IMG/VR virus record: IMGVR_UViG_3300029861_000002
Reading direction: 5' to 3' (one strand)
DNA from: a virus
Lineage: Duplodnaviria; Heunggongvirae; Uroviricota; Caudoviricetes
DNA: 64,000 bases
Within the stretch, counting starts at the first letter, position 1, and each line of letters opens with the position of its first letter. Both the position numbers and the translations under genes were made by a program. Under the pieces are notes generated by a model. The model made no database searches, had not been told where the DNA came from, and saw nothing but the letters and a program-made list of their open reading frames with translations. Positions 20,549-46,202 of the stretch are shown piece by piece.

Positions 20549-20559
20549 GCCCTCCTTTA

Positions 20560-20618
20560 TTTTTTTATTTTTTTATGATATAATATATATAGAAAGTTAA
20601 GGAAAGGAAGTAATTTAT
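20560..20618 (+). promoter_or_regulatory. conserved promoter/leader motif copy
   Basis: TTTATGATATAATATATATAGAAAGTTAAGGAAAGGAAG. Confidence 0.6.
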
Positions 20619-21070: not shown

Positions 21071-21310
21071 GGACACCTTTGATGTTATCTTCACTATTTA
21101 TCTAGGTAATTAGGTTATTGAGTAGTGGAGAATGCAAGCTCCTAGACCTTTTATTGAAGCTCAATTCATTTAGATAGTTCAGCAAATTGCTTCTTAGAAG
21201 TAGCCTATGAAAGTAGTAGTATCAAGAGAAGAAGTGATTTGGGACTAGTTTGAGCAAAAACATAAAGTTCTTCCAATAACTATGGAATTTCAAAACTATA
21301 AGGAGTAAAG

Positions 21311-21649: not shown

Positions 21650-21666
21650 GAAAGGAGTACGATAAC

Positions 21667-21930
21667 ATGGGTGGTTATTACGGAGATATGGATACTTTTA
21701 TGATAGATGAAGGTATCCTGAATAAACTGGTCACATTCGGTTCATATGATGGCTTGCTCTTGACAGGAACAATCAAGTATGTTATCAAAATGGATAGTGA
21801 TTTCCTTATTGGAATTATCCCTGATCGAACTCCAGAAGATGTAGATGCTAAGCAAAAGGAAGATACAGGTATAGCTTTTGTACCTCTTTCTCGACTAATT
21901 AATTTAGATATATTTAAGATTTTTATGTAA
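21667..21930 (+). CDS. hypothetical protein
   Basis: 87 aa with RBS AAGGAG. Confidence 0.45.
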   Translation: MGGYYGDMDTFMIDEGILNKLVTFGSYDGLLLTGTIKYVIKMDSDFLIGIIPDRTPEDVDAKQKEDTGIAFVPLSRLINLDIFKIFM

Positions 21931-21946
21931 TGAGGAGGCATGAAAG

Positions 21947-23221
21947 ATGGCTTATTTTGGTCTGGTGACTAAGATTCAGAACGTGCGGAAAGACCCGAAT
22001 TCCGATCGGCTATATCTAGCGGATTGCTTTAATGAAGGAGTAATCGTAGGCCCTGACATGAAGACCGGAGATCTGGTGCTCTATCTGCCCACCGATGGAG
22101 AAATTGAACGCTGGTTTGGTAATGAATTCTGCCTTTTCCGCAAGAATGAAGATGGATCTATTCAGGGCGGATACCTTGAAAATAATGGCCATGTGCGGGC
22201 CATTAAGCTCCGCGGCAATCAGTCTTCTGGTATTGTCATTGCTCTTGATCGAGTCTATGAAAAGTTTGGTGACCAGCATTGGAGTAATGGAGATAAAGTA
22301 ACTACTATCAATGACAAGGAGTTTTGCCGTAAGTATATTCCTAAGCGAAAGAGCGATTCTACTTATGGAGCAAAGACTTCTTACAAAGGGCGCAAAGCTG
22401 AGGGGATTACTTATCCTGAGTTCTCTATGCATACTGATACCGAGCAGCTTGCATATAACTTTGATAAGTTCCGTGAGGGTGATGAACTAAATATGACCCT
22501 CAAGATGCATGGCACCTCTCAGCGCTCTATGAATACTTATGCAGAGCTTCCTAATGGTTTCTTCCGTCGCCTTTTCCATATGAAGAAGCGCACTAAGCAG
22601 GCTTATGTTCTTGGAACTCGCCGTTGTGTGGTGACTGAAAACTCTCAGGGGTACTATGGGAACGATCAGTTCCGTATGCCTCATCATGAAGCTTTAAAGC
22701 CCTATCTTGAGCCTGGGATGGAAGTTTTTTACGAAGTAGTAGGCTACTATGGGCCAAATGAAGAGAATACTATTATGCCTATTGGTGATAATACTAAAAT
22801 CAATGATAAGGCTTTTGTAAAGCAGTTTGGTAAACGGTCTATCTTCTCTTATGGCTGTGAACCCGGTCAGAGTAAAATGTATATCTATCGCATCACCTCT
22901 GAAAATGGAGAGAGAGAGTGGACTCCTGACGAAATTACTGCCTGGTGCGATTGGCATGGTTTTAATCGCGTTCCTGTAATTGAGAACTTCAAGTTTACTA
23001 CCGTTGAGGATCTTCAGGAGCGTATCAATAAATACTTCGAAGATCTCGCAGATCCGATCGGCCGCACCCATGTTAAGGAAGGAGTAGTTATCCGAATTGT
23101 AAATCGGCGTACTTTTACTGCTTTCAAGTCAAAAACCTTTGAATTTAAAGTTATTTCTGGGATTGCTACAGAGAGCGTAAATTCTAGTAATATTTCTGAA
23201 GATATTCTTGCGGAAATGTAA
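21947..23221 (+). CDS. putative ATP-dependent RNA ligase (Rnl2-like nucleotidyltransferase motif I)
   Basis: 424 aa. The segment TLKMHGTSQRS resembles the Rnl2/ligase motif I (KxHGxN/S lysine-adenylate site). RBS GAGGAGG. The family assignment is tentative. Confidence 0.45.
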   Translation: MAYFGLVTKIQNVRKDPNSDRLYLADCFNEGVIVGPDMKTGDLVLYLPTDGEIERWFGNEFCLFRKNEDGSIQGGYLENNGHVRAIKLRGNQSSGIVIALDRVYEKFGDQHWSNGDKVTTINDKEFCRKYIPKRKSDSTYGAKTSYKGRKAEGITYPEFSMHTDTEQLAYNFDKFREGDELNMTLKMHGTSQRSMNTYAELPNGFFRRLFHMKKRTKQAYVLGTRRCVVTENSQGYYGNDQFRMPHHEALKPYLEPGMEVFYEVVGYYGPNEENTIMPIGDNTKINDKAFVKQFGKRSIFSYGCEPGQSKMYIYRITSENGEREWTPDEITAWCDWHGFNRVPVIENFKFTTVEDLQERINKYFEDLADPIGRTHVKEGVVIRIVNRRTFTAFKSKTFEFKVISGIATESVNSSNISEDILAEM

Positions 23222-23317
23222 TTTACCCACAAATTTAAAAAAAAAGAGGGTAAAATGATTAAATCATCTCCTTTTATTTCTTATATAATGTAGACAATAA
23301 AAAGGAGATGATTTTTA

Positions 23318-24181
23318 TGCCAAAAGCATTAGATTTAACTGGTCAAAAGTTTGGAAAATTAACCGCTTTACGTAGATTACCAAATCAAGGTCGTAGAACT
23401 ATTTGGGAATGTTAGTGTGACTGTGGTAATATAATCCCCGTCCGCGCAGAAAATTTAAGAAGTGGGCATACTACCTCATGCGGATGTAAAAAGAGAGAGC
23501 CATCTAAAAAATTTGTTGATTTAACAGGACAGAAATTTGGGGAATGGACAGTATTATCAAAAGCAGAGAAAGAGAGCTACTGGCTATGTGAATGTTCTTG
23601 TGGAGTAAAAAGAGAAGTATATGCCCCATCATTAAAGAGTGGAAAATCTCTTTCTTGTGGACATTTATTTAAAAATTAGATTCGTAATCCTATTATAGGA
23701 AGCAGATATGGAAATTTAATTGTGTTAGAACAATTTAAAGAAAATGATACTTGGTGTTGTAAATGCTAGTGCGACTGTGGAAATATCACGATTGTAAAAA
23801 GACAAAATTTAACTTCTGGGAATACCTAGTCTTGTGGTTGTATAATCTCAAAAGGAGAAGCTAGAATAAAACGGATCTTGCAAGAAGCAAATATACCCTT
23901 TATTTCTCAATGGACGCCACAGGATTATCCAAATCAAAAATGTAAATTTGATTTTTACATAGACAATAAGTATGTAGTAGAGTTCGATGGTCCATAGCAT
24001 GAAGGTCAAGTAAGTGGATATTATACTAAAGAAAAAGTAGACGCTTTAATGCAAAGAGACTAGGAAAAAAATAAATATTGCCTATCTCACAATATTCCTT
24101 TATATCGTATTCCATACGAATATAGAGATACAATAACCTTAGAGCTGCTAACGGATGAAAAATTTCTCGTTAAATCTTGAA
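23318..24181 (+). CDS. homing-endonuclease-like protein with repeated Zn-ribbon modules and DUF559/Vsr-like nuclease C-terminus (7 in-frame TAG)
   Basis: RBS AAAGGAGA. Repeated LTGQKFG(K/E)LT...W(E/L)C[x]CDCGN...SG.T.SCGC modules, where x is encoded by TAG three times. The C-terminus FDFYIDNKYVVEFDGP[TAG]HEG matches the DUF559 restriction-endonuclease-like fold (FDGxQH). A single 288-codon frame to TGA at 24179. No ORF of 60 aa or more appears in the six-frame track here because of the TAGs. Confidence 0.65.
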
Positions 24182-28894: not shown

Positions 28895-29629
28895 GTGATT
28901 AAAGTGAGCGTATACGCTATTAGTGATCTTCATGGTATGTTATGTCTTTATCAAGAGGTAAAGAAATTTTTAAAACCAGAAGATAAAGTTTATTGCCTGG
29001 GCGATTGCGGCGATCGGGGACCTGATCCTTGGGAAACCATTAAAGCAGTTGCCGCAGATCCGCAATTTATCTACATCAAGGGTAATCACGAAGATATGCT
29101 TGTCAATGCAATGAGAGAATATGCGAAGTATGAATGTTTCGACAGAGATTATGCTTTGCTTTGTTTTAATGGAGGGAAAGACACCTTTGAAGGTTGGATA
29201 AGTGATGGTGCGAACCCTGATTGGTGTAATTATTTAAGTAAGTTACCTACTTATATGGAATACTGCAATAAAGACGATGTTAAAATAGCTCTTTGTCATG
29301 CAGGGCTTACAGCAGGTTCTAATCCAAATACAAGAGATTTAATCTGGGATAGAGAACATATTTGGGATACTTACTATGAAAATAATACTATCTGTGTTCA
29401 TGGACATACTCCTATCCCCGGTATGATTAGAGGCTATAGAGGAAGTCTAAAAAATTTCTTTGGAGCGAGAGAAGACTCTTATGTTGAGGGTGCTTTTTGG
29501 TACTGCAATGACCATAAGGTAAATATTGATTGTGGCAGTTTCTTTACTGGACAAACCGTTCTCTTAAATCTCGATACCTTTGACGAGCATATTTTTATGG
29601 TTGATATGGAGGATAAACAGTATGAATGA
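28895..29629 (+). CDS. Ser/Thr-phosphatase-like metallophosphoesterase (lambda-PPase/ApaH-like)
   Basis: YAISDLHGM, GDCGDRGPD and GNHE motifs. 244 aa. Confidence 0.7.
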   Translation: MIKVSVYAISDLHGMLCLYQEVKKFLKPEDKVYCLGDCGDRGPDPWETIKAVAADPQFIYIKGNHEDMLVNAMREYAKYECFDRDYALLCFNGGKDTFEGWISDGANPDWCNYLSKLPTYMEYCNKDDVKIALCHAGLTAGSNPNTRDLIWDREHIWDTYYENNTICVHGHTPIPGMIRGYRGSLKNFFGAREDSYVEGAFWYCNDHKVNIDCGSFFTGQTVLLNLDTFDEHIFMVDMEDKQYE

Positions 29630-30467
29630 CCAACTTGGTACTCGTATGAAGGAGTTTTATGAACAGGTACCTAAAACTCGCCTCATGCGCAGAACTCCAG
29701 TAGCAATTAGAATTGATGGAAAAGCATTTCATACCTTCACTAAAGGATTTAAAAAACCATTTGACGAAGTGTTAGTTGAAGCTATGCAAGAAACTACAGA
29801 GTATTTGTGCAGAAATATTCAAGGATGTGTTCTTGGATATACACAAAGTGATGAAATAACTCTAATTCTTGTTGATTACAAGAAATTAAATAGTGAAGCG
29901 TGGTTTGACTACGAAGTTCAAAAGATGTGCTCTGTTGCAGCATCTATGGCGACAATGGCTTTTAATAAAGCTTTTCATCGAGCGATTGAAGCATACGAAG
30001 TTGATTGGAAGTGCTCTCTAACTCCGCAAAGTGTAGAAATCCGACAGAAACATCAAGAATATATGAAAACTTTACGGATGGCAAGCGCAAAAGGTGCTAT
30101 GTTTGATGCACGTGTTTTTAATATCCCAAAAGAAGAGGTAACAAATCTCATTTACTGGCGACAGTTAGATGCCATTCGCAATTCTATTCAAATGGTTGGT
30201 CAAGCAAATTTTTCTCATAGTGAACTTCAGGGTAAGTGCAGTAGTGAAATTTTAGAGATGCTTATTTCCAAAAAGGGGATAGATTGGAATAGTCTACCGA
30301 CCTATTTGAAGAGAGGTTCTTGTTGTATAAAAGACTGCGAAGAAACGGAAAGAGAAGATGGCTCAATTCATTTTAAACACTATTGGTTTATTGACCTTAA
30401 TATTCCTCTATTCAAAGATGAAGGTAGGACTTATATTGAAGAACTAATTCAACCAGTTGAGATTTAA
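29622..30467 (+). CDS. Thg1-like 3'-5' nucleotidyltransferase (tRNA-His guanylyltransferase-like protein)
   Basis: PVAIRIDGKAFHTFTKGF matches the Thg1/TLP motif (RxDGxxFxxFT). The catalytic region YTQSDEITLIL is also present. About 281 aa. Confidence 0.6.
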   Translation: MNDQLGTRMKEFYEQVPKTRLMRRTPVAIRIDGKAFHTFTKGFKKPFDEVLVEAMQETTEYLCRNIQGCVLGYTQSDEITLILVDYKKLNSEAWFDYEVQKMCSVAASMATMAFNKAFHRAIEAYEVDWKCSLTPQSVEIRQKHQEYMKTLRMASAKGAMFDARVFNIPKEEVTNLIYWRQLDAIRNSIQMVGQANFSHSELQGKCSSEILEMLISKKGIDWNSLPTYLKRGSCCIKDCEETEREDGSIHFKHYWFIDLNIPLFKDEGRTYIEELIQPVEI

Positions 30468-31056: not shown

Positions 31057-31620
31057 ATGATTTTTCTAACTTCAGATTGGCACTTTAATCATTCGAAAGA
31101 GTTTATCTATAAACCTCGCGGATTTGATTCTGCTGAGGAAATGAATAGTGCTCTTGTTGAACGGCACAACTCTCTTGTAACCTCAGAAGATGATGTATAT
31201 ATTCTTGGAGATTTATGTTTAGGTGGGGCAGAAAGCCTTGAGAAAAGCAGAGAACTTATTAGTTCTATGAATGGAAAACTTCATGTGGTTTTTGGAAATC
31301 ATGATACACCTAAACGTCGGCAAATGTATGCAGAGTTGCCGAATGTAGTTGAAACTGCATGGGCGCTTAGTCTTAACTACAAAAAATATCATTTCTATAT
31401 GTCTCATTTTCCAACTTTAACTGGAAATCTTGAAAAAGAGAGTCTCCATGAAATGATGCTTAATCTCTACGGTCATACGCATCAAAAATCTGATTTTTAT
31501 GAGGATAGACCCTATATGTATCATGTAGGAGTTGATTCACATAGCTGTTATCCAGTTTCTCTTGATGCAGTTATTGATGAAATGAAACTAAAGGTAAAGG
31601 AGTGCGTTGATATGCTATGA
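31057..31620 (+). CDS. metallophosphoesterase (candidate 2',3'-phosphatase partner of the kinase)
   Basis: Calcineurin-like motifs DWHFNH, GDLCLGG, GNHD and GHTH. 187 aa, immediately downstream of the kinase. Confidence 0.65.
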   Translation: MIFLTSDWHFNHSKEFIYKPRGFDSAEEMNSALVERHNSLVTSEDDVYILGDLCLGGAESLEKSRELISSMNGKLHVVFGNHDTPKRRQMYAELPNVVETAWALSLNYKKYHFYMSHFPTLTGNLEKESLHEMMLNLYGHTHQKSDFYEDRPYMYHVGVDSHSCYPVSLDAVIDEMKLKVKECVDML

Positions 31621-32393
31621 GCGGTGGTGTCGACGGAGAGGTTCTTACCCAAGGATGGCATCTGGTCTCTCCCACCAAGAAGGTAACTACCTATTCTATC
31701 GGTCTTGAGCAGTCTTATTTGACTTCTGAAGATAAGGGCGATTCTCCTAATGACGAGAGTTTTAACGTACCTACTAGCGATGGCAAAACCGTAAAGGTAA
31801 ACCTTGAGTTCTCTTACCGATTTGATGAAGATCGTGTTGCAGAAACCTTTACTCTATTCAAGGGTAAGGATGGCGAAACCATTAAGGATACCTTCATTAA
31901 GCCTAAGATTGTAGCATGGACTCAGGAAGTTACAGCTAACTATCCTGTAACTGATATTTTTGGCGACCAGCGTACTGCAATCAATGCTGAACTTGACGTT
32001 TATCTGCGTGAAAAGTTTGACCAGTATGGTATCATTATTGATACTGTAAACTTTACTGATATTTCTGTTGATGCTGAAACCGCAGAGGCTATCCAGAAGA
32101 AGGTAAATGCTCAGCAGGAGCTTGAGCTTGCCAATATTGAGGCACAGACTGCAAAGGTTCAGGCTGAGAAGGAAAAGGAAGTCGCTGAGATTCAGGCCGA
32201 GCAGGCGCTAATTCAGGCTCAAGCGCAGGCCGATGCTCTTGAAATTGCGGCGCAGGCCGAAGCTGAGGCAAATGCAAAGATTGCCGCTTCTCTTACTCCT
32301 GAGCTGATTGAGAAGATTAAGTATGAACAGTGGAATGGTCAGATGCCTTCTACTATGGCCGGAACTGATTCTTCTATTTTGATTACTCCCTAA
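31617..32393 (+). CDS. SPFH/band-7 domain protein
   Basis: 258 aa. An SPFH-like core is followed by a long Ala/Glu/Gln-rich coiled-coil tail (QAEKEKEVAEIQAEQALIQAQAQADALEIAAQAEAEANAKIAASL). The N-terminal start is uncertain. Confidence 0.55.
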   Translation: MSGGVDGEVLTQGWHLVSPTKKVTTYSIGLEQSYLTSEDKGDSPNDESFNVPTSDGKTVKVNLEFSYRFDEDRVAETFTLFKGKDGETIKDTFIKPKIVAWTQEVTANYPVTDIFGDQRTAINAELDVYLREKFDQYGIIIDTVNFTDISVDAETAEAIQKKVNAQQELELANIEAQTAKVQAEKEKEVAEIQAEQALIQAQAQADALEIAAQAEAEANAKIAASLTPELIEKIKYEQWNGQMPSTMAGTDSSILITP

Positions 32394-33315: not shown

Positions 33316-34564
33316 TGAAATTCGATTCTATGATACTTGTTCTTTGTTAAATGCTGGAGAAAGTATATTTGACAAAGAAGAAAAGTTTGTAGTTTCATCA
33401 ATCACTTTTAAAGAGCTTGAAAGAATTAAAACTGCTAGCAATAAAGATCTGGATATAAAGTATTCTGCTCGTTTGTTATTGCATCTGCTTGAAGAACATC
33501 CCGATATGTATGATGTTGTTGTCCATAGATTAGAGTACGAAGAAGCAATTAAAGAGCAATCTCTTGATGTAACAGATGATACAAGAATATTATCAGACGC
33601 TTTTTGGTATAATAATAAAGTTAGAGTAGACGAAACAGTCTTTGTAACAAATGATTTAAGCCTAAAAACGATAGCAAATTTATTCTTTGGTTCCGGAGAA
33701 ATAGAAAGCGTTGAATCAGATAATGATGATTATAGTGGCTATGTAGAAATAAAAGCAGATGATAGTTCATTGGCATCTTTTTATCAAGATCCGAGTTTCA
33801 ACCATTACAATCTTCATATTGGAGAATATTTAATTATTCGAGACCTTGATGGGAAAATTGTTGATATAAGGGTCTGGACAGGAGAAAATCATAGATACCT
33901 TAATTATAACAACTTTGATTCTATTTGGTTTGGTAATATTACACCATATAAAGAGGATGTTTATCAAAAACTTTTATTTGATAGTTTAAGTAATAATAGA
34001 ATTACTTTGATAAAAGGCCCCGCTGGTTCTGGTAAAACAATTATTAGTCTAGCTTATTTGATGTCTAAACTAGACAGAGGAGATTTAGACAGAATTGTCG
34101 TATTCTGTAATACAGTAGCAACAGCAAATAGTGCTAAATTAGGTTATTTACCCGGAACCCGCAATGAAAAGTTACTCGATTCCCAAATTGGAAATCTATT
34201 GATTTCTAAATTTGGCGGTAGAGATGGGGTAGAACAACTTATTGAGACAGATAAGTTAGTCCTTCTACCCATGAGTGATATTAGAGGTTATGACACATCT
34301 GGAATGAAGGCTGGTATCTATATCTCTGAAGCACAAAATCTTGATAGAACACTAATTAAACTCGCTCTCCAAAGAGTTGGCGAAGATTGTGTTTGCATTA
34401 TAGACGGCGATGCTAAAACTCAAGTTGATGATATTCATTTTGCAGGAAGTAACAATGGAATGAAACGTGTTTCTAAAGTTTATAGAGGTCATGATATTTA
34501 CGGAGAAGTTGAACTTCGTAACATTTATAGATCTAGAATTGCGAAAATTGCAGAAGATATTTAA
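33308..34564 (+). CDS. PhoH-like ATPase with N-terminal PIN domain (PhoH2/YlaK-like)
   Basis: The PIN-like N-terminus FYDTCSLL..TNDLSLKT is fused to a PhoH Walker A motif, LIKGPAGSGKT. 418 aa. Confidence 0.8.
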   Translation: MSNEIRFYDTCSLLNAGESIFDKEEKFVVSSITFKELERIKTASNKDLDIKYSARLLLHLLEEHPDMYDVVVHRLEYEEAIKEQSLDVTDDTRILSDAFWYNNKVRVDETVFVTNDLSLKTIANLFFGSGEIESVESDNDDYSGYVEIKADDSSLASFYQDPSFNHYNLHIGEYLIIRDLDGKIVDIRVWTGENHRYLNYNNFDSIWFGNITPYKEDVYQKLLFDSLSNNRITLIKGPAGSGKTIISLAYLMSKLDRGDLDRIVVFCNTVATANSAKLGYLPGTRNEKLLDSQIGNLLISKFGGRDGVEQLIETDKLVLLPMSDIRGYDTSGMKAGIYISEAQNLDRTLIKLALQRVGEDCVCIIDGDAKTQVDDIHFAGSNNGMKRVSKVYRGHDIYGEVELRNIYRSRIAKIAEDI

Positions 34565-34617
34565 GGAAGAGAGCTAAAACTCTCTTCCTTTTTTCATGCG
34601 TAAAAGGAGGGAGTAGA

Positions 34618-36027
34618 GTGGCTGATAATGCACAAACAATTTGGAATTATTTTAAATCAAAAGGATTTAGTGATTGCGGAATCGCGGGTCTAATGGGCAA
34701 TCTTTACGCAGAAAGCGGTCTTAGTCCAACTAATTTATAGAACTCATATGAAAAAAAGTTAAAGATGACTGATTCTGAATATACCTCCGCTGTTGATGAT
34801 GGAAGATACAAAAACTTTGTAAAAGACGGGGCTGGTTATGGTCTAGCTCAATGGACATTCTGGAGTAGAAAACAAAATCTGCTTTAGTTCTGTCAAAATC
34901 GTGGAAGATCCATTGGAGATTTAAACACTCAATTAGATTTTTTATATTAGGAGCTAATTACAAGTTTTTCTTCTTTAGTTAATATTTTAATTTCTGCCGT
35001 TTCTGTTGAAGCAGCATCTACAGCAGTACTGCTCTAGTTTGAAAAACCTGCGGATTAGAGCGTTTATGTTCAACAAAAGAGAACAAGTTATGGTCAATAG
35101 TATTATAATAAATTTGCTAACATTTCAAATATAGTTGAAGGAGGTAATAAAATGAAATATAGTGATAGCAATAAACCACTTCAATGCATGATGACTAATA
35201 GCACTTGCTATAAATAGACACGCACTATGCAAGTTAAAGGAATTTTATGGCATAGTACAGGCGCGAATAATCCTAATTTAAAAAGATATGTTCAACCTAG
35301 CGATAATGATCCCAACTATAATACTTTAATAAGTAAAATAGGAAAGAATACAAGTAAAAATGACTGGAATCATGTATCTATTCAAGCTGGGCTAAATTGC
35401 TGGATTGGCAAGCTAGCAGATGGAACAGTAACAACAATATAGACAATGCCATGGAATTATCGTCCTTGGGGATGTGGTTCTGGAACTAAAGGCTCTTGCA
35501 ATAATGGATGGATTCAATTTGAAATTTGCGAAGATGGATTAAATGATGCAGACTATTTTAATAAGATTTATGAAGAGGCTTGTTAGATTACTGCTTACTT
35601 ATGCAAGATGTATAATATAAATCCATTAGGAACAACTACCTTGAACGGTATTACCGTCCCAACTATTTTATGTCATGCTGATAGCCATAAGTTAGGATTA
35701 GGCTCTAATCATGCAGATGTAAACCACTGGTTTCCAAAATTTGGAAAAAGCATGGAAACAGCAAGAACAGATGTTTACAATTTAATGTCAAATGTTTAGG
35801 AGGATGATGAAGATATGACTGATGAAAAATTCGCTGAATTTATGAATACTTGGCTAACCAATAAAGCTAATGAAAAAGAGACATGGGGTTCCGATAATCT
35901 CGAATGGGCTAAGACAAATGGAATTATGGCCGGCGACAGCGCTGGAAGAATGATGCCAAACAAATTCTGTACTAGATTAGAAACAGTAACTATGATTAGA
36001 AGATTGGCGGAAAAGCTAGGACTTTAA
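34618..36027 (+). CDS. multidomain endolysin: tail-lysozyme-like domain + amidase-like domain + SLH cell-wall-binding domain (10 in-frame TAG)
   Basis: GTG start with RBS AAAGGAGGGAG. GLMGNLYAESGLSPTNL[TAG]NSYEKK...GYGLAQWTFW is a lysozyme-like domain. ILWHSTGANNP...CHADSHKLGLGSNHADVNHWF is an amidase-like domain. The C-terminal WAKTNGIMAGDSAGRMMPNKFCTRLETVTMIRRL matches the SLH motif. A single 470-codon frame has 10 TAG and no TAA/TGA until 36025. Confidence 0.65.
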
Positions 36028-36028
36028 G

Positions 36029-36373
36029 ATGAAAAAGATAGAATTTTCTAAGAAGCTCATAAATGATATTCGCTTGCTATTGTGGATTATAACCATATCA
36101 GGAATACTTTTAGCATTTATGTGCGTCTATATGGGTTATTTGGGGACTTTGCCATGGATTAGTGCTCTTATAGGTTTACCATGGAGTGCTCATGGTATAG
36201 TTTGCTCCTTCTATCTAACGATGGCTAAATCAGATCATAAAAAGGGTGGAATAACCTACGATTTAGCTTTAAAAGAAATTGAATCTAATTCCGCATCTAT
36301 ATATACTGTTTAGACAGAAGATTTTTCGGCATCTAATGATATTCCTATTGATCTCGATGGCCCTATTTAATAT
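36029..36373 (+). CDS. holin-like membrane protein (1 in-frame TAG)
   Basis: Two or three TM helices (LLLWIITISGILLAFMCVYMGY.. and ISALIGLPWSAHGIVCSFYL). Starts 2 nt after the endolysin stop. TAG at 36311 then 20 more codons to TAA. A terminator follows. Confidence 0.5.
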
Positions 36374-36412
36374 AAAGGCTTAATGGGTATTTATCCCATT
36401 AAGCCTTTATTT
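36374..36412 (+). terminator. rho-independent terminator after the lysis cassette
   Basis: AAAGGCTTAATGGG-tattta-TCCCATTAAGCCTTT + ATTTGTTT. Confidence 0.8.
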
Positions 36413-36496: not shown

Positions 36497-36958
36497 ATGA
36501 CTATATATACCGATGGTTCTTGCCTAGGTAATCCTGGGCCAGGAGGTTTTGGAGTTATTGTAGTTGATAATGATGTCGTTATAGACGCTTACTCAGAGCG
36601 TGAACCACAAACTACAAACAATAGAGAGGAAATGAAAGCTATTATATATGCGCTAGAACACTATGGCGCAAAAGAGGGAGATTTCTTTGTCCCAATAGTC
36701 TATAGCGATTCTTCTTATTGTGTAAATAGTTTCAATTCATGGATAAATAGCTGGAAAGCAAATGGATGGGTACGCGCAGGCGGAAAGAAACTTGAAAATC
36801 TTGATTTAATTAAAATTTATGATATGCTAAGACAAGATTACAAGATTGATCTAAGAAAAATTAAAGGTCATGATGGTGAGCTTTATAATGAACTAGCCGA
36901 CGCGTTAGCCACTGAAAGAATGACTAAAGAAGAAATTTTAAGAGAGTATGGTGAATAA
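36497..36958 (+). CDS. rnhA: ribonuclease HI
   Basis: MTIYTDGSCLGNPGPGGFGVIV...REEMKAIIYAL...SDSSYCVNS...KGHDG..YNELADALA is a canonical RNase H signature. 153 aa. Confidence 0.85.
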   Translation: MTIYTDGSCLGNPGPGGFGVIVVDNDVVIDAYSEREPQTTNNREEMKAIIYALEHYGAKEGDFFVPIVYSDSSYCVNSFNSWINSWKANGWVRAGGKKLENLDLIKIYDMLRQDYKIDLRKIKGHDGELYNELADALATERMTKEEILREYGE

Positions 36959-38848
36959 ATGGCTGGAAAATTATATGATGAAAAAAGTATTGAATCTCTT
37001 TCTCCTCTTGAATTTACTCGTTTAAGACCCGGAGTTTATTGCGGAGACACATCTACTTCCACGCAGTTAGTTGTAGAGATTGTCTCTAATGCTGTTGATG
37101 AATTTAGATTAGGTCATGGAAATTTAATCACAGTAGAAATCCATGGAGCAAGAGTCACAGTTGGTGATCAGGGACAAGGATTCATTCCAAATTCTTTTAG
37201 AGAAGATGGAAAGACAATTCTTGAAGCTGCTTTTAGTGTTTTAAACACAAGCGGAAAATATAGAGAAGATGGAACTTATGAAGGTACTTCTTTAGGTAGC
37301 TTTGGTATCGGTAGTAAACTCGCTACTTATCTCAGTCACGAATTAATTGTTACAACATATAGAGATGGACAGGGAGAGCGAATCACTTTTAATGAGGGAG
37401 TTTTCGCAGATAGAGATTCTACTGAGGTTGATAAAAATATTCATGGAACTTCTGTATTCTGGAGAGCAAGCGAGGAGTTTTTCACTGATCCTCGTCCAGA
37501 TGTAAAGGCTCTAACTGAACTGTTTAAAACTATTGTATGTCTCTGTCCGGGTTTAACTATTAAGCTCGATAACAACGGAGAAAAAACAGAATTCTTCTCA
37601 AAGAATGGTCTAATGGATTTACTAGACGAGGCCGTTAAAGGGAAAGAGATCTTAAAAAATCGTCTATCAATTAATTTTTCCGAAGCTAAAAATAAGTTGG
37701 ATTTAGCTCTAACTTATACAAATAATTATTCTTCTACCATTGTTCCTTATGTTAATACTGGTTTAACAGAAACAGGTCCACATATTACGCAAATTAAAAC
37801 CCTTTTAACAAGAGAAATGAATAAGTTTTTCCGTGAAAAAGGGTGGTTAAAAGAAAAAGACGATAATCTTACTGGCGAAGACTGTCAAGAAGGAATGTAT
37901 CTCGTCTTTAATATTACCGCCCCCAATGTAGCCTACGACGCACAGGTTAAGTCAAGAATCACAAAACTTGATATGAAACCATTTACGCAAGCAATAGCAG
38001 AGGAATTGCAATATTGGTTTGCAGCAAACGAAAAAGATATAAAAGGAATCGCGGACAAGGCGCTTAATGCGCGTAAAGCTAGAGAAGCAGCCAGAAAAGC
38101 TAGAGAAGCAGCCAGAGGATTAAAGCCTAAAAAAGAAAATGGACTAAAGGCAAAAATGCAAATTAGTAATAAATTTATTGATTGCATAAACAAAAATCCC
38201 AAAGAGCGAAATTTACTTCTCGTAGAGGGTTTGTCTGCTGGCGCTTCTGCCGTAGAAGCCCGCAATCCAAAAACAGACTGTATTTATATGCTAAGAGGTA
38301 AAATTATTTCTCCCTTGAAAACTGCCATAGAGAAGATTTTATCTAACCAAGAAATGTCTGATGTAGTTAGAGTTATAGGTGGTGGATTTGGTACTTCTTT
38401 TGATGTATCAAAGATAAACTTTGATAAAGTAGTTATTACCGCTGATGCTGATAGCGATGGAGCAGATATTGAGCTAATGCTTATTACATTCTTTTTTACT
38501 TATATGCGTCCATTGGTAGAGGCAGGTAAGCTATATCGAGCTGTAACCCCCTTATATATTGTTCGCCAAAGAGGAAACGAATACTACTGTTACTCTGACG
38601 ATGAGCTAGAAGAGTGGAAAAAAAGTCATAATGGCTCTTATGATATTTTAAGAGCAAAAGGACTCGGAGAATTAAATCCAGAAGATTTGCAGAAAGTTTG
38701 CTTCATGAACGAAAGATATAAGAGAATCACTATCTCTGATGCAGAAGAGGCTACAAAGCTATTAAATGTCCTTATGGGTAGTGCAGTTGAACCTAGAAAG
38801 CAATATATTTATGACAATGCCAATGAGCTTGGATTTAATTTTGATTAA
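36959..38848 (+). CDS. type II DNA topoisomerase, ATPase (GyrB/ParE-like) subunit
   Basis: 629 aa with a GHKL ATPase N-terminus (EIVSNAVDE, GxGxG region) and a TOPRIM C-terminal region (LLVEGLSAGAS). Adjacent to the A subunit. Confidence 0.85.
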   Translation: MAGKLYDEKSIESLSPLEFTRLRPGVYCGDTSTSTQLVVEIVSNAVDEFRLGHGNLITVEIHGARVTVGDQGQGFIPNSFREDGKTILEAAFSVLNTSGKYREDGTYEGTSLGSFGIGSKLATYLSHELIVTTYRDGQGERITFNEGVFADRDSTEVDKNIHGTSVFWRASEEFFTDPRPDVKALTELFKTIVCLCPGLTIKLDNNGEKTEFFSKNGLMDLLDEAVKGKEILKNRLSINFSEAKNKLDLALTYTNNYSSTIVPYVNTGLTETGPHITQIKTLLTREMNKFFREKGWLKEKDDNLTGEDCQEGMYLVFNITAPNVAYDAQVKSRITKLDMKPFTQAIAEELQYWFAANEKDIKGIADKALNARKAREAARKAREAARGLKPKKENGLKAKMQISNKFIDCINKNPKERNLLLVEGLSAGASAVEARNPKTDCIYMLRGKIISPLKTAIEKILSNQEMSDVVRVIGGGFGTSFDVSKINFDKVVITADADSDGADIELMLITFFFTYMRPLVEAGKLYRAVTPLYIVRQRGNEYYCYSDDELEEWKKSHNGSYDILRAKGLGELNPEDLQKVCFMNERYKRITISDAEEATKLLNVLMGSAVEPRKQYIYDNANELGFNFD

Positions 38849-38865
38849 ATGATGGTGGTGGAATA

Positions 38866-41229
38866 ATGAGTTTAATTACTGAAGTTGATATTCTTGATGA
38901 AGCTAAAGAAAACTTCTTAACTTATGCAGAAGAGGTTCTTACTGATAGAGCTATCCCAGCCGCAGAAGATGGACTTCTAAGCGCCCAAAGAAAAATTCTT
39001 TGGACTATGGAAGATTATTTAAAGATGGATAATAAGAGTAAAACAAAAAAGTGTAATGCTATTGTTGGCTCTACTCTTGCAACATCTTACTTCCATGGTG
39101 ATATAGCTTGCTATGGCGTTTTGAGAAAAATGGCTCAATCATTTTTAATGAGATACCCACTGATTACAGGTCAGGGGCAACTGGGAACTCAAGAAAATAA
39201 TGATATGTTTTCATCCTCTCGTTATACAGAGGCTAAACCTTCATTATTTGCTGATTTAATGATGAATGACTACAAGAAGGAAGTCGTTCCAGTTAAAGAA
39301 ACTTATAATGGAGAATTTATGGAACCTGTAGTTCTTCCTTCTTTATTTCCTAATGCTATCTGTAACGGACGACAAGCTATCGGAATTTCTATGGCGCATA
39401 ATTCAGCCCCGCATAATTTAACAGAGGTATGTAACGCAGCCATTGCTCTAATCGAAAAGGGCGATCTTACTATTGATGAATTGCTTTCTTATATGCCCGG
39501 GCCAGATTTCCCTCTTGGCGGAACTGTCCTAAATATCAAAGATATAAAGTCCGCATTTGAAACTGGAAAATCAAAAATCTCTCTTAAAATTCAAGGCGAC
39601 TATGAGATAGATGGGCAAACAATTACCTTTACAAGTATCCCTTATCGAACTTACAGAAACAAGATAAAGGAGCAAATTGAAAAGAATATAGACACATTTA
39701 GTGAGCTATTGGATGATTTCGATGATGAATCCAATATTGGGCAAAATAAGTTAGTATTCCATATAAAATCTGGTGTATCTGTTTCTAAAGCTCTTAATAC
39801 CTTATTCCTGCTAACTGATTTACAATCTACTCTATCATACAATATGAATTATATTGTAAATGGAACTCCTAAATTATGCTCAATGCTGGATTTGCTTAAA
39901 GAATACATTAAACATCAAGAGACTGTATTAATTAGCGCTACTAAATTTGATAAAGAGAAAGCCGAAGCAAGAGCACACGTTCTTGAAGGGCTAATCGCCG
40001 CAGTTGATAAAATTGATGAAGTAATCAGTTTAATTAAGCAGTCTGCGGGAAGGGCAGATGCGAAAGCAAAGTTGATTGAGTTCTTATCTGTTGATGATAT
40101 TCAAGCTGGTGCCATCTTGGATATGAAATTAGGAAAACTTACAAGAATTGATAAGGATGAATTAATAAATGAGCTTCAAGAAAAGAGAAGTTTTATTGCT
40201 CAATGTGTAGAAATTCTAACAAAGCAAGAAGTTAGAAATCTTAAACTTACTGCTAAAATTAAAGAACTTCGAGATAAATATGGTGATGCCAGAAGAACAA
40301 AACTTCTAAATACCGATATTCCTAAGGCTGAGAAAGAGCAAGTAGTAGTAGAAGCCAAAGACTGTATGGTAATAGTAACAAAAAAGAATACCATAAAAAG
40401 AATAGATATAAAGAATTTTAAGTCTCAGAAGAGAAATACTACTGGGGTAAAGACCAATGGAGATATTACAGTATTTTCACAAAAAACCAATACACAAGAT
40501 ATGTTGATGGTCTTTTCTTCAAAAGGAAAAATGTATCGTGTCCTTGTTGATAATATTCCCGAGGGAACTAATACTTCTGTTGGCACTCCGTTATCAGCAA
40601 TTATTGAATTTGAAGATAATGAAGTTCCTATTGCTTATACTACTTTAGCAAGAGATACAGATAAAAAGTTTATATTCTTTGCTACAAAACGAGGAATTAT
40701 TAAAAAGGTTCCCTTAGAAGAGTATGATGCAATGAAGAGAACTGGTATCGTTGCTATTAAGCTAAAAGAAAACGACGAGCTTTCTTCAATCACATTTATC
40801 AATCAAGAGGAAATGATGTTAGTTACAAAGAATGGTATGGTTATTAGATTCCCAACTGCGGAAATGCCAATTTCTTCCAGAACCGCGCAAGGAGTTAAGG
40901 GCATGAATGTTGCAGAAGATGATTATGTAATTGCAGCATTGCCTATCGACCAATCTAAATATTTGGCTATTGTTTCTTCTAACGGATTAGGAAAAAAGGT
41001 TGAGTTAAAAGAATTTACATTGCAAAACCGTGGAGGAAAGGGCATCTCCTGTTATAAAGGTGCTATCTCGGGTGCAGAGTTAGTGAATGATGATGATCTG
41101 ATTTTAATTTCTGGAAATAAAACTTCTATAGTTATTAAAGTGTCAGATTTTCCTTTGTTAAATAGAACTTCTATGGGAAATATTATGCTGAAAGATAATG
41201 AGCAAATAATTTCAACATCTAAGATTTAA
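38866..41229 (+). CDS. type II DNA topoisomerase, subunit A (GyrA/ParC-like)
   Basis: 787 aa. LSAQRKILWTM, DGLKPVQRR-type N-terminus and the catalytic Tyr region. Follows the B subunit. Confidence 0.85.
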   Translation: MSLITEVDILDEAKENFLTYAEEVLTDRAIPAAEDGLLSAQRKILWTMEDYLKMDNKSKTKKCNAIVGSTLATSYFHGDIACYGVLRKMAQSFLMRYPLITGQGQLGTQENNDMFSSSRYTEAKPSLFADLMMNDYKKEVVPVKETYNGEFMEPVVLPSLFPNAICNGRQAIGISMAHNSAPHNLTEVCNAAIALIEKGDLTIDELLSYMPGPDFPLGGTVLNIKDIKSAFETGKSKISLKIQGDYEIDGQTITFTSIPYRTYRNKIKEQIEKNIDTFSELLDDFDDESNIGQNKLVFHIKSGVSVSKALNTLFLLTDLQSTLSYNMNYIVNGTPKLCSMLDLLKEYIKHQETVLISATKFDKEKAEARAHVLEGLIAAVDKIDEVISLIKQSAGRADAKAKLIEFLSVDDIQAGAILDMKLGKLTRIDKDELINELQEKRSFIAQCVEILTKQEVRNLKLTAKIKELRDKYGDARRTKLLNTDIPKAEKEQVVVEAKDCMVIVTKKNTIKRIDIKNFKSQKRNTTGVKTNGDITVFSQKTNTQDMLMVFSSKGKMYRVLVDNIPEGTNTSVGTPLSAIIEFEDNEVPIAYTTLARDTDKKFIFFATKRGIIKKVPLEEYDAMKRTGIVAIKLKENDELSSITFINQEEMMLVTKNGMVIRFPTAEMPISSRTAQGVKGMNVAEDDYVIAALPIDQSKYLAIVSSNGLGKKVELKEFTLQNRGGKGISCYKGAISGAELVNDDDLILISGNKTSIVIKVSDFPLLNRTSMGNIMLKDNEQIISTSKI

Positions 41230-41262
41230 AGATAAGAGTAGCTTTGCTACTCTTATCTTTAG
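41230..41262 (+). terminator. rho-independent terminator
   Basis: AGATAAGAGTAGC-ttt-GCTACTCTTATCT + TTAG. Confidence 0.7.
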
Positions 41263-41335
41263 TTGACTTTTATTTTTAATAAGAATATAATATTATATAT
41301 AATAAAAGTAATATTATAATAAGAAAGGTTATAGT

Positions 41336-41530
41336 ATGGACGATAGAGATAAATTAAAAAAGATTGCTCTCTTTGCTCTAGCGGGTATTGTTATATTATT
41401 TGTAATAATGATTTCTATTGCATTACCACTTATTCTAATGATTAAAGTTAGTGTTTGGTTTATACTCCTCTACGCAATTCCTATCGGGGCGTTTTTGGGA
41501 GTGTATGTTTATTATGAGGAGTTTGATTAA
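41336..41530 (+). CDS. small membrane protein
   Basis: 64 aa with two TM helices. Promoter motif upstream. Confidence 0.45.
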   Translation: MDDRDKLKKIALFALAGIVILFVIMISIALPLILMIKVSVWFILLYAIPIGAFLGVYVYYEEFD

Positions 41531-42618
41531 TGTATCCTGAAGCTAAAATGATAGATGCAATGAAGGTATGGAAACTTCCTTCTGGAAAAGAATCTATGCT
41601 TTCAGAAATTTGCCAGTCTGGAGACTACTTCCTAGAAGAAAAGATTGACGGCTATTGGTATGAGTATGAAAAAACAGAGAATTATAGCTATCTTTTTTCG
41701 CGAAATACCAGTACCACAACAGGGCTGCTCTCCGAAAAAGGAGCTAATGTTCCCCATATTATGGAAGCTCTTGATTGTATGCCTCCTAATACAATTTTAA
41801 TAGGAGAAATATATTACCCTGGGTGTACTTCTAAAACAGTAACAACTGTTATGGGATGTTTACCAGAACTAGCTGTTAAAAGACAAGCAAATAATCCAAT
41901 TCATTATTATATACATGATATAATTGAGTATGATGGAATTAACTTAATTAATCTGGGCGCAGAAGATAGATATAAGATTCTTACTGGTGTATGGAATAGA
42001 CATAATTTATCTCAATATGATTTCTTGAAATTGGCTCTAAAGATTACTGAAAATCTTGAAGAAGAGATTTCTAAAATCTTAAACTCTGGAGGAGAAGGAG
42101 CTGTTTTAAAGAAAAAGGATTATCCATATACTCCGGGTAAACGTCCAGCTTGGTCTACAGTAAAAGTCAAACAAATGGATTCTATTGATTTAGTTTGCAC
42201 AGGTCTCTGTCCTCCAACAAAGGAATACACTGGGAAAGAGCTAGATACATGGCCATATTGGGAAAGTCCTGATGGTGAGCTATGTGATTTTATTGATGCT
42301 GTACCTAAAGGAGACTTAATCACGGAAGGGTATGTTCCAATAACTAAATACTATTATAATGGCTGGAAATCAGCTATTAAAATTGGAGCATACGATAATG
42401 ATAATAATTTAGTTGATCTTGGCACAGTTAGCTCAGGTATTACGGATGATATGAAAAGGCTAATGACAGAGTTTCCAGGAAACTTTGTTGGACACGTAGT
42501 AGCTCTTGATTGTATGTCCATCAATAGAAAAGATCATACCCTACGACACCCTGTTTTCAAATGTATGAGGGATGATAAGGATGCTAAAGACTGTCTCATA
42601 GATGAAATTTTTAAATAA
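41530..42618 (+). CDS. ATP-dependent DNA ligase
   Basis: Motif I EEKIDGYW (KxDG) and a later GGEGAVLKKKD..PGKRP region, which are ligase motifs IV-V. 362 aa. Confidence 0.65.
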   Translation: MYPEAKMIDAMKVWKLPSGKESMLSEICQSGDYFLEEKIDGYWYEYEKTENYSYLFSRNTSTTTGLLSEKGANVPHIMEALDCMPPNTILIGEIYYPGCTSKTVTTVMGCLPELAVKRQANNPIHYYIHDIIEYDGINLINLGAEDRYKILTGVWNRHNLSQYDFLKLALKITENLEEEISKILNSGGEGAVLKKKDYPYTPGKRPAWSTVKVKQMDSIDLVCTGLCPPTKEYTGKELDTWPYWESPDGELCDFIDAVPKGDLITEGYVPITKYYYNGWKSAIKIGAYDNDNNLVDLGTVSSGITDDMKRLMTEFPGNFVGHVVALDCMSINRKDHTLRHPVFKCMRDDKDAKDCLIDEIFK

Positions 42619-42688
42619 ATCTGTTTGACACTAAAATAAAATTATTGTATTATATATTTGTAATTCAGGGATAAAGGATAGAAATTAT

Positions 42689-42895
42689 ATGACCCGAAAA
42701 TAGATGAAAAAGCTCGCTAAAGAACTATATTAGTGTGAGCAAATTCACCAAAATGAATCTTCCTCAAAAGAGGAAAAATCCCGGGCTGAAAATCGAATTA
42801 TGCAAATCACTAATTAGATTATGGCATTGAATGACGGGATAAATATTTTGCTAGAAATTGATGTTATGGTTCAAGATTTAGCAACACAACAATAA
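42689..42895 (+). CDS. small coiled-coil protein (3 in-frame TAG)
   Basis: 68-codon frame MTRK[TAG]MKKLAKELY[TAG]CE..., open only if TAG is read. Weak RBS. Low confidence. Confidence 0.3.
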
Positions 42896-42925
42896 ATAAT
42901 ATATTTTAAAGGAGAATGTCTAATT

Positions 42926-43192
42926 ATGGCAGCTATGAAAGAAAATACTCGTAAGGTTTTAGATTATTTAAAGGAAAACAATGATACTAATTTGACAGCC
43001 GCAGATGTTGCTGAAGCTCTCGGTCTTGAGAAGCGTCAAGTTGATGGTATCTTTACTTCTGCGTTCCAGCGCAAGGGATTGGGCGAGCGCGTTCCCGATG
43101 AAGTAACTCTTGAGGATGGTTCCCATCAGAAGGTAAAGTATCTTCGTCTTACCCAGAGTGGTCTTGATCTAGATCCCGACGCACAAGAGTAA
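42926..43192 (+). CDS. hypothetical protein (possible winged-helix DNA-binding)
   Basis: 88 aa with RBS AAAGGAGAA. A terminator follows at about 43198-43232. Confidence 0.5.
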   Translation: MAAMKENTRKVLDYLKENNDTNLTAADVAEALGLEKRQVDGIFTSAFQRKGLGERVPDEVTLEDGSHQKVKYLRLTQSGLDLDPDAQE

Positions 43193-43197
43193 TGTCT

Positions 43198-43232
43198 ATC
43201 GGGAAGAGTTTTAACTCTTCCCGATTTTTTAA
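43198..43232 (+). terminator. rho-independent terminator
   Basis: ATCGGGAAGAGTT-ttaa-CTCTTCCCGAT + TTTTTAATT. Confidence 0.8.
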
Positions 43233-43234
43233 TT

Positions 43235-44146
43235 ATGATTATAGGATTATTATTAATAGCTATAATCGGGTTAATAATTTATATCTATTATCTCAAAAAG
43301 CAAACCCTTGAAGTAGTTTAGATTAACACAGATAATCAAAGAAAAAACGCTGAAATAGAAAAAGAAATAGCACATAATAGAGAAGTGTTATCTAACATAA
43401 AAAATAATATAACATTTGAGAACGATATTCTTTCTTCTTTATTAAAATCTTAGGAAGAAATGCGGGAAAGTGCTTAGAAACAAGCTGATGAAGCCTATTA
43501 GGCACGCGTCTCCGCACTTGTAAAATCCTACAAAGAAAAAGAATAGGAACTTTCTTTGACTTTTGATGCTAAAAATCAAGATTTGCTAAAGAAAATTTCT
43601 ATTGAAGCCGGGAAATTAGCTGATTTATAGGCTAAGTAGCTTTCCTATATTTAGGCCAAATAGAGATAGGAAGAAATTGACTCTAATCAAGATTATTATC
43701 GTCTTGCTCTTGATGAAATAGATATTAATGATATTACGTTATTGCGCGAATTACAACCAAGATTTGTAAAGAAAGAAAGTATAGATAAACTAATATGGGA
43801 AGTATATTATAAGCCAGCTTATGATATTTTAATGGCCCATTTGTTTCCCAAGGCAGTTAAATATTGCGGTATCTATAGAATAACTGATTTAACTACAGGC
43901 AAGTCCTATATTGGACAATCGGTTGATATAAAAGAACGATTTAGATAGCATATTAAATCTGCTTTAACCTATGGAAAGGTAACTAATAAGTTATACTCTG
44001 CTATGCAGAAATCTGGAGTTCATAATTTCGTGTTTGAAGTCTTAGAAGAAGTAACCAGAGACAAACTAAACGAGAGAGAAACCTATTGGATTGAGTTCTA
44101 TAAGACTAAAGAATTAGGTCTTAATGGAACTAAAGGAGGAGCTTAA
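43235..44146 (+). CDS. GIY-YIG homing endonuclease with N-terminal TM/coiled-coil region (about 11 in-frame TAG)
   Basis: The C-terminal half CGIYRITDLTTGKSYIGQSVDIKERFR[TAG]HIKSAL...YWIEFYKTKELGLNGTKGG is a GIY-YIG core. The single 304-codon frame is interrupted only by TAG. Confidence 0.6.
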
Positions 44147-45493: not shown

Positions 45494-45539
45494 ATTATAA
45501 TTAACACCACTCATATTATAATGAGGATGGTGATTGTTA

Positions 45540-46202
45540 ATGTCTTGTGGAATATATAAAATTACTAATTTAGTAAATGGTAAAATCTATGTTGGATAGA
45601 GTGTTGACATAGAGCGAAGATTCTAGAAACATTTATATGCAAATGATGATTTTATTATTCATAAAGCAATAAAAAAGTATGGTAGATAGAATTTTAGTCT
45701 TTAGATTTTAGAAGAGTGTTCATAGGAACTTCTAAATGATAGAGAAATCTATTGGATAAAAACTCTAAATTCTATTACTCCAAATGGATATAACATGATT
45801 AATGGTGGAAGTAATGGAGCTGGATTTGCAAAAGGATATAAAGTTATACAATATAATTTAAATGGTGAGTATATAGCTGAATATCCCAGCGCGAAATAGG
45901 CAAGTAGAGAAACTGGTATAGATCATCATACTATTTGTGATTGCTGTAATGGAATAAATCATCATGCTGGAGGATTTTAGTGGAAGTATGAAAACTCTGA
46001 CAAAGAAATAACTCCAATAAATATTCGTTTAGATTTTACTGTGCTTTAGATTAATAAAGACACTGATGAAGTAATTTAGGAATTTAATTCAATAGCAGAA
46101 GCTTCTAATAAACTTAATATTGCGAAAAGCACAATTTGTAATGTTTGTAATGGAAAAGGCAAAACTGCTGGCGGATTTAAATGGAAATATAAGAATAAAT
46201 AA
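45540..46202 (+). CDS. GIY-YIG homing endonuclease (about 9 in-frame TAG)
   Basis: MSCGIYKITNLVNGKIYVG[TAG]SVDIERRF[TAG]KH is a GIY-YIG core. The C-terminus ..KTAGGFKWKYKNK is shared with the 1615 gene. The 221-codon frame is broken only by TAG. Confidence 0.65.

Follow-up and report, generated by a model that had tools for sequence, protein, structure and literature searches.

Conserved Shine-Dalgarno and start-codon motifs inside a TAG-recoded phage endolysin: candidate starts for nested isoforms that share a single SLH domain

This report concerns the lysis cassette of a Caudoviricetes phage, contained in a 64,000-nucleotide stretch of IMG/VR record IMGVR_UViG_3300029861_000002 (the window, analyzed at its full length). 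The cassette consists of an endolysin gene and, directly behind it, a gene for a holin-like membrane protein, and within the endolysin frame lie two strong Shine-Dalgarno (SD) sequences, each followed by an in-frame ATG. The reading that we favor, and consider moderately probable, is that both motifs are ancestral internal translation starts maintained by selection in a modular endolysin, that they would give rise to three nested isoforms able to form a heteromer through SLH domains, and that the recoding of TAG to glutamine is a later overlay. Internal endolysin starts and the recoding of lysis genes have both been described already; the main value of the present case lies in starts that are ancestral and not products of recoding.

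A three-domain endolysin gene and its internal start motifs

With TAG read through, the endolysin gene is a single three-domain open reading frame (ORF) running from Phage_lysozyme2 through Amidase_2 to SLH (Table 1). The SD of its GTG start has a duplex energy of -12.3 kcal/mol, at the 97th percentile among gene starts of the window. A first-pass annotation had counted 10 TAG codons in the frame, and exactly 10 are present, at codons 41, 90, 111, 140, 147, 161, 200, 275, 323, and 394 (first bases 34738, 34885, 34948, 35035, 35056, 35098, 35215, 35440, 35584, and 35797). Six of them fall inside the Phage_lysozyme2 domain and two (codons 275 and 323) inside Amidase_2; codon 200 sits three codons upstream of Amidase_2, downstream of the first internal start. 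The SLH module has neither a TAG nor any Gln codon.

The C-terminal module is assigned as a single SLH domain on several grounds. Its Pfam SLH score is 19.5 bits within the whole protein and 23.7 bits as an isolated module (cut-off 20.8), 6 of 13 homologous modules match Pfam SLH (best E = 4.3e-8), and the module profile matches the Bacillus anthracis Sap SLH structures 6bt4 and 3pyw (E = 1.4e-6). The TRAE-like motif, associated with the secondary cell wall polymer, reads TRLE in the window and TRGE, TREE, or TREQ in relatives, with T53 and R54 invariant in the module alignment. Each endolysin polypeptide carries one SLH copy only.

Both internal motifs lie in interdomain linkers. Site 1, GAAGGAGGTAATAAAATG (35137-35154), ends in ATG 35152, which is in-frame codon 179 and is followed by AAA; it falls between Phage_lysozyme2 and Amidase_2, and its predicted product is an amidase-SLH protein of 291 amino acids. 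Site 2, TAGGAGGATGATGAAGATATG (35797-35817), ends in ATG 35815, in-frame codon 400, between Amidase_2 and SLH, with a predicted SLH-only product of 70 amino acids. The SD/anti-SD duplex energies are -13.4 kcal/mol for site 1 and -10.2 kcal/mol for site 2. The 68 gene models of the window contain 337 internal in-frame ATGs, and a duplex of -10 kcal/mol or lower precedes only 3 of them, two being sites 1 and 2. The site 1 SD outranks the SDs of all 68 gene starts, and that of site 2 is at least on a par with SDs of real gene starts. These internal motifs are far beyond chance. The first-pass annotation had placed them in frame ahead of the amidase and SLH domains, and positions, linkers, and duplexes all agree with it. 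Its further description of both motifs as following TAG codons is right for site 2, whose SD comes directly after in-frame TAG codon 394, and wrong for site 1: the TAG just ahead of that site (35132-35134) belongs to another frame, and the closest one in frame, codon 161, lies 51 nucleotides (nt) upstream.

Table 1. Features of the lysis cassette and TAG-bearing genes used for comparison (positions are those of the window)
Feature	Position	Strand	Description	TAG codons	TAG per 1000 codons	TAG share of Gln codons
Upstream terminator-like hairpin	34563-34596	+	Hairpin and T-run between PhoH/PIN gene and endolysin SD, from scan			
Primary endolysin start	34604-34620	+	SD AAGGAGGG, 7-nt spacer, GTG start of full-length endolysin			
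Endolysin gene	34618-36027	+	469 codons, GTG start, TAA stop (36025-36027), TAG = Gln	10	21	43%
Phage_lysozyme2 domain	34624-35115	+	Residues 3-166; Pfam PF18013, E = 2.6e-34			
Internal start site 1	35138-35154	+	AAGGAGGT, 7-nt spacer TAATAAA (35145-35151, after GGAGG core), ATG 35152			
Amidase_2 domain	35224-35679	+	Residues 203-354; Pfam PF01510, E = 6.6e-12			
Internal start site 2	35797-35817	+	TAG codon 394 overlapping AGGAGG (35798-35803), 11-nt spacer, ATG 35815			
Single SLH cell-wall-binding module	35815-36027	+	SLH core, residues 423-455			
Holin-like membrane protein gene	36029-36370	+	113 amino acids; ATG 1 nt after endolysin TAA, weak SD			
Closing terminator-like hairpin	36372-36410	+	From scan; 16-bp stem, then T-rich tail			
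Suppressor tRNA, anticodon CUA	14995-15069	+	ARAGORN; Rfam tRNA model, 61.6 bits			
GIY-YIG gene	45534-46202			9	40	90%
GIY-YIG gene	43460-44146			9	39	60%
RecJ-like gene	52702-54453			13	22	52%
Window average					4.9	14.5%

Conservation and origin of the internal sites

A scan of IMG/VR retrieved 235 relatives of the endolysin, of which 80, at 50-93% identity, were kept and grouped at <80% identity into 18 lineages. The same ORF runs uninterrupted through 54 unique relatives (50-95% identity), many of them with zero TAG in the gene. The lysozyme and amidase parts share one ORF in every relative examined, and the short SLH tail is present in about half of the lineages. The idea, raised in the first-pass annotation, that the domains might be separate genes in related phages therefore found no counterpart within the family. 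Because TAG-free relatives carry the fused gene, the fusion is ancestral to the family and was not made by read-through of former stops; a fusion created by recoding was rejected on the same ground, as was a division into three separate genes with TAG stops.

Site 1 is nearly universal in the family. Met179 is invariant in all 54 unique relatives, the SD core and start codon are kept in 17 of the 18 lineages, and the second codon is AAA or AAG without exception. The residues that encode the SD vary from lineage to lineage (E-G-G-N-K, K-E-E-I-A-K, T-G-G-S-N, E-K-G-D-G, and others) around a constant GGAG. Site 2 keeps its SD and start in 9 of 9 SLH-tailed lineages and is absent from lineages with an SH3, PG_binding, or ELLD tail. 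Its SD is encoded throughout by GAG-GAG, against the general preference for GAA as the Glu codon (334 to 120). The start is GTG in one lineage, which argues for a start-codon function and not for a need for Met. The first-pass annotation had treated loss of the motifs in relatives as grounds for abandoning its proposal; the relatives retain them.

The contribution of the encoded residues was gauged by resampling synonymous codons from each gene's own usage with amino acids fixed (200,000 simulations). At site 1, 17 of 18 lineages have the SD core where 6.7 were expected (P <5e-6, with 17 reached in no simulation), and at site 2, 9 of 9 have it where 4.3 were expected (P of about 2e-4); both P values are optimistic, as the lineages are related. 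Among other internal in-frame ATGs, only about 8 of roughly 220 have an SD core. That selection acts on the nucleotides of both sites is well supported by these comparisons.

The gene order PhoH/PIN, endolysin, holin-like, RNase H, topoisomerase is conserved, including in L020 and L035, two relatives whose entire 9-kb loci are TAG-free. Syntenic relatives that have no TAG and apparently use the standard code carry both internal starts, so the sites predate recoding. Comparison of the sequences thus establishes that the starts are independent of TAG; temporal gating by TAG can only be surmised.

An origin for site 1 is suggested by bacterial genomes. At least 21 Clostridia loci in a bacterial genome collection (Oscillospiraceae, Lachnospiraceae, Acutalibacteraceae, and other Clostridia) carry a stand-alone endolysin that begins MKY(S/T/N)..NKP..C at the equivalent of Met179. 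Each such gene has an SD of its own and, a few codons ahead of its start, an in-frame stop, and the amidase modules are 48-74% identical to that of the window. Because these homologues begin at the same Met with an SD, site 1 is best explained as the original start of an amidase endolysin, kept after the gain of an N-terminal lysozyme domain. Stand-alone amidase-SLH endolysins occur in GenBank phages; of these, the Dulem virus 33 endolysin has AGGAGG-N8-ATG ahead of its SLH module and that of NatCom_20922 has no such motif.

TAG recoding, cassette borders, and the source phage

TAG encodes Gln in this phage (genetic code 15): a tRNA(CUA) is encoded, TAG aligns with Gln in endolysin relatives, and TAG interchanges with CAA and CAG. 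Among the phage's own tRNAs, the closest to tRNA(CUA) is tRNA-Gln(UUG) (71% identity to Gln_ttg). In the alignment of the 54 unique relatives, 6 of the 10 TAG columns have Gln as their most frequent residue other than TAG, and the TAG columns are mostly Gln in TAG-free relatives; among relatives of 78-95% identity, CAA/CAG and TAG exchange at the same positions. TAG counts in the endolysins of the syntenic family range from zero to 12, the latter in the relative L084.

In the endolysin gene, TAG takes a larger share of Gln codons than in the window as a whole (Fisher p = 5.6e-4). By the significance of this enrichment the gene ranks fourth in the window, after a GIY-YIG gene, the RecJ-like gene, and another GIY-YIG gene. 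The first-pass annotation had called the cassette the most TAG-dense locus, which does not hold: the two GIY-YIG genes are about twice as dense, and the RecJ-like gene has more TAGs at about equal density. TAG-bearing genes number 23 of 68 in the window, and many encode homing endonucleases (GIY-YIG, HNH, or LAGLIDADG-like); two are tail-fiber-like. Homing-endonuclease-type genes of these kinds, at least seven in all (the GIY-YIG genes of Table 1 and those at 1615-2220, 5113-5511, 6875-7447, 23317-24180, and 55443-55970), are spread across the tRNA and replication regions. In TAG content, both GIY-YIG genes of Table 1 and an HNH-type gene (23317-24180) rank with the richest genes in the window, in agreement with the published preferential recoding of intron endonucleases. 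The RecJ-like gene encodes a DHH/DHHA1/RecJ_OB exonuclease of DNA metabolism that is recoded as much as the endolysin, and its 13 TAGs fit poorly with a simple rule of late genes only. Three TAG-free genes use nearly only CAG for Gln, whereas the rest of the window prefers CAA: those for a DUF2828/DUF7788 protein (16091-17614), an RNA ligase (21947-23221), and an SPFH/Band 7 protein (31617-32393), with CAA/CAG counts of 0/11, 0/12, and 2/16. This bias suggests that the three genes have another origin or belong to another expression class.

The holin-like protein has two hydrophobic spans, a strong one at about residues 15-39 and a weaker one at 41-63, and its gene is conserved directly downstream of the endolysin gene in relatives. 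The protein and four relatives gave no usable Pfam or PHROG match, only families of unknown function at E >= 0.0014, and the term holin is used here by position. The single TAG that the first-pass annotation had reported in this gene is codon 95 (36311-36313). It lies past the hydrophobic segments, and termination there would remove an acidic 18-residue tail only; it is missing in the 90%-identical L001 and lies elsewhere in other clades.

Upstream of the cassette, the terminator-like hairpin leaves no space for a sigma-70-type promoter ahead of the endolysin SD, no recognizable promoter follows it, and a sigma-70 promoter scan around the cassette found about as many sites as chance would give (22, with 18.6 expected). 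In 8 of 9 lineages, TAG-free L035 among them, a hairpin occupies this position, 15-30 nt from the SD, with a sequence that differs between lineages; its presence in TAG-free lineages shows that it predates recoding. The loci compared were L085, L006, L004, L018, L035, L078, and L052, and the hairpin is lacking in L020. Transcription of the cassette may proceed by terminator read-through or antitermination. In the closest relatives, loci L059 and L001 (3138-3992), a gene of 284 amino acids with 2 TAGs is inserted between the PhoH-like gene and the endolysin gene; its absence from the window marks the PhoH-endolysin junction as an insertion hot spot.

The evidence points to a source phage of roughly 130-150 kb that infects gut Clostridia and reads TAG as glutamine. 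Two near-complete relatives, L084 (CALCFD010000051.1, 147,780 bp) and L085 (CALWOP010000177.1, 148,971 bp), have endolysins 85% and 78% identical to that of the window and were binned in metagenome-assembled genomes labeled Eubacterium sp. and Oscillospiraceae, and stand-alone homologues of the amidase module occur in isolate genomes of Oscillospiraceae and Acutalibacter; together these point to gut Clostridia as hosts. Nucleotide searches with the cassette and with 36900-44000 against 50,697 GenBank phages returned nothing useful, and a protein search with the topoisomerase reached at most 36% identity, with no close relative among deposited GenBank phages. Similar-sized code-15 Clostridia phages are described in the Phassvirus paper (PMC10607447), to which a relationship is not established.

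Within an array of 26 tRNA genes lie a full-length ROOL RNA (RF03087, 350 bits, 8464-9059) and a tmRNA (RF00023, 69.9 bits, 4696-5026), and an additional tRNA-model match of 121 nt (9326-9446), which ARAGORN did not call, may contain an intron. No Rfam ribozyme family reached the gathering threshold anywhere in the window, including beside the suppressor tRNA; only tRNAs, the tmRNA, and the ROOL RNA were matched. Genes of RNA- and tRNA-repair type, for an RlaP-like nucleotidyltransferase, a metallophosphoesterase, an RNA ligase, and a Thg1-like tRNA-His guanylyltransferase, lie beside the array (18885-23221 and 29622-30467), and because they adjoin so large an array, they suggest that the phage maintains its own tRNA pool.

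Interpretation and relation to known systems

Under the reading that we favor, the gene would yield three nested products: the full-length endolysin of 469 amino acids, the amidase-SLH protein from site 1, and the SLH domain alone from site 2. Extra SLH copies would co-assemble with the catalytic isoforms into a wall-binding unit in which an SLH trimer is completed, and by analogy with described endolysins the SLH-only copies probably join the catalytic isoforms in a heteromer. TAG codons would be a separate and later layer, in keeping with the published tendency of code-15 phages to recode lysis and homing-endonuclease genes. Since TAGs occur in all catalytic parts, every catalytically competent isoform would depend on the suppressor tRNA.

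Several points weigh against this reading. Use of the internal sites is deduced from nucleotide patterns, and the lineages behind the conservation statistics share ancestry. At 11 nt, the spacer of site 2 is near the upper end of the range for SD-led initiation. A preference for certain linker residues (acidic EEDDED, Gly-Gly) could account for some of the SD conservation, and retention of site 1 could partly be an inheritance of the fusion. A heteromer is apparently not required of single-SLH endolysins, given that NatCom_20922 has no internal start and none has been reported for LysBT1.

The account offered by the first-pass annotation is that the internal motifs exist because of the TAGs: scarce suppressor would give separate domains, abundant suppressor a fused endolysin and a full holin, and the switch would time lysis. 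The phage does encode tRNA(CUA), the TAG share of endolysin Gln codons is 43% against 14.5% window-wide, TAG 394 abuts the SD of site 2, and in several recoded lineages the endolysin and holin genes bear TAGs between TAG-free PhoH, RNase H, and topoisomerase genes. In every recoded relative the SLH module is free of TAG, where four clades together would be expected to show about 3.1 (P of about 0.03), and in the clade of the window the module has no Gln codon; the general timing idea is published (bioRxiv 10.1101/2021.08.26.457843), so that the TAG enrichment is in line with that part of the proposal. The motifs themselves are not tied to TAGs: both are found in TAG-free syntenic relatives and are older than recoding, and no in-frame TAG adjoins site 1. 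Nor would scarce suppressor release separate enzymatic domains, as the lysozyme would end at codon 41 and the site 1 product at codon 200, after 21 residues and with three further TAGs to follow, leaving the 70-residue SLH as the only product that could be completed. The holin TAG behind the membrane segments varies among relatives, and homing endonucleases surpass the endolysin in TAG enrichment, while the RecJ-like gene, with more TAGs, is comparable to it. As an account of how the motifs arose, the switch is already contradicted by these comparisons, and we regard it overall as distinctly unlikely. A version in which the two layers are coupled, as a two-stage device of the recoded lineage whose code switch sets both the isoform ratio and the moment of wall attack, seems to us a little less plausible again. 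The TAG-free 70-residue SLH would be made from ATG 35815 once the cassette is transcribed; ribosomes from that start would run into the abutting holin start and sustain holin translation; catalytic isoforms would arise only with active tRNA(CUA) and dock onto pre-made SLH subunits; and the late holin TAG would add the acidic 18-residue tail only after the switch. The TAG-free SLH module offers a weak hint of such coupling between recoding and isoforms.

The first-pass annotation had also allowed for a relic of gene fusion, and for the origin of site 1 this stands, given the stand-alone Clostridia amidases that begin at the equivalent of Met179. The stronger form, in which both motifs are unused remnants of lysozyme, amidase, and SLH fusions and only the full-length protein is made, has these amidases and the stand-alone amidase-SLH endolysins of GenBank phages in its favor; it is opposed by selection on the SD and is in our judgment unlikely. 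Silent motifs would be expected to decay, yet 17 of the 18 lineages keep the SD core, at protein identities as low as about 50% and despite residue changes and codon usage, the second codon remains AAA or AAG, site 2 changes from ATG to GTG in one lineage while keeping GAG GAG where GAA is common, and site 2 vanishes upon exchange of the tail domain. SD-like sequences have also been proposed in the literature to cause translational pausing, a view disputed by later work. Pausing at a domain boundary could aid co-translational folding of the upstream domain, and both motifs do lie in linkers just past a folded domain. A pause needs no start codon, yet an in-frame ATG or GTG is co-conserved at proper spacing together with a favorable AAA or AAG second codon, and the same Met is the true gene start in stand-alone homologues; we consider pause sites very improbable. 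That TAG is a genuine stop, and the region several small genes or a pseudogene, has next to no likelihood: the standard code does break the region into ORFs of 30-71 amino acids, but the TAGs lie within Pfam domains that are intact on read-through, TAG-free homologues mostly have Gln at the aligned positions, TAG and CAA/CAG replace each other, the phage encodes a tRNA(CUA), and 23 of 68 genes in the window behave in the same way.

Two practical consequences follow from the locus. The family forms a series from TAG-free to 12 TAGs in a syntenic endolysin, which is convenient for testing whether recoding delays lysis, and code-15 genes with strong internal SDs are prone to being mis-split by annotation pipelines, here into "three genes."

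Borges et al. reported that lysis genes and intron endonucleases are preferentially recoded and that recoding may delay or time lysis (bioRxiv 10.1101/2021.08.26.457843). Like the recoded gut phages of that study (crAss-like, Agate, Jade, and others), the phage examined here has its own suppressor tRNA and stops concentrated in lysis and homing or intron endonuclease genes; as in their code-15 and code-4 phages, many replication genes are clean and close relatives with the standard code exist. Unlike those phages, its lysis cassette lies between PhoH/PIN and RNase H/topoisomerase genes and not with structural genes, its RecJ-like gene is as recoded as the endolysin gene, and it belongs to a different, undescribed phage family.

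Among endolysins, internal starts have been predicted in about 50% of those from Gram-positive phages; several have been validated, with heteromers of full-length and cell-wall-binding-domain polypeptides (Pinto et al., PMC9430671), and CTP1L, LysIME-EF1, and phi2638A are worked examples (PMC4777826, PMC7098653, PMC12203907). The window endolysin resembles Lys170, LysIME-EF1, CTP1L/CD27L, and LysP7951 in having an in-frame SD and start in the linker before a C-terminal binding domain (PMC9430671, PMC7098653, PMC4777826). As in these two-polypeptide systems, the short product, here a predicted one, is the binding domain alone, and the site is conserved within the homologue cluster, the feature by which Pinto et al. 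judged their cases (PMC9430671). It departs from them in three ways: its binding domain is a single SLH, a type not among described cases; a second, upstream internal start raises the predicted products from two to three; and its catalytic part carries TAG = Gln codons, known here from sequence. Two nested internal starts in one endolysin, with three predicted isoforms, thus go beyond the known cases. For site 1 the nearest parallel is the staphylococcal phi2638A endolysin, in which an internal start lies between the lytic domains and the full-length and short isoforms heterodimerize (PMC12203907). Both sites fall between two catalytic domains and would give a short isoform without the N-terminal catalytic domain; phi2638A differs in its M23/amidase/SH3b architecture, against lysozyme2/amidase_2 here, and site 1 is traceable to the native start of a stand-alone amidase endolysin.

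The closest match for the C-terminal half is LysBT1 from a Brevibacillus thermoruber prophage, the first single-SLH endolysin to be reported, which has an amidase followed by one SLH with a TR.E motif and trimerizes through that SLH (PMC12285257). Single-SLH proteins form trimers that mimic the spindle of three-SLH proteins (PMC12285257). LysBT1 forms homotrimers, and the window endolysin adds to this plan an N-terminal lysozyme and a predicted SLH-only isoform. A stand-alone binding isoform made of a single SLH would likewise extend the known cases, and the trimerization seen in LysBT1 supplies a simple structural and mechanistic reason for such an endolysin to want extra SLH copies.

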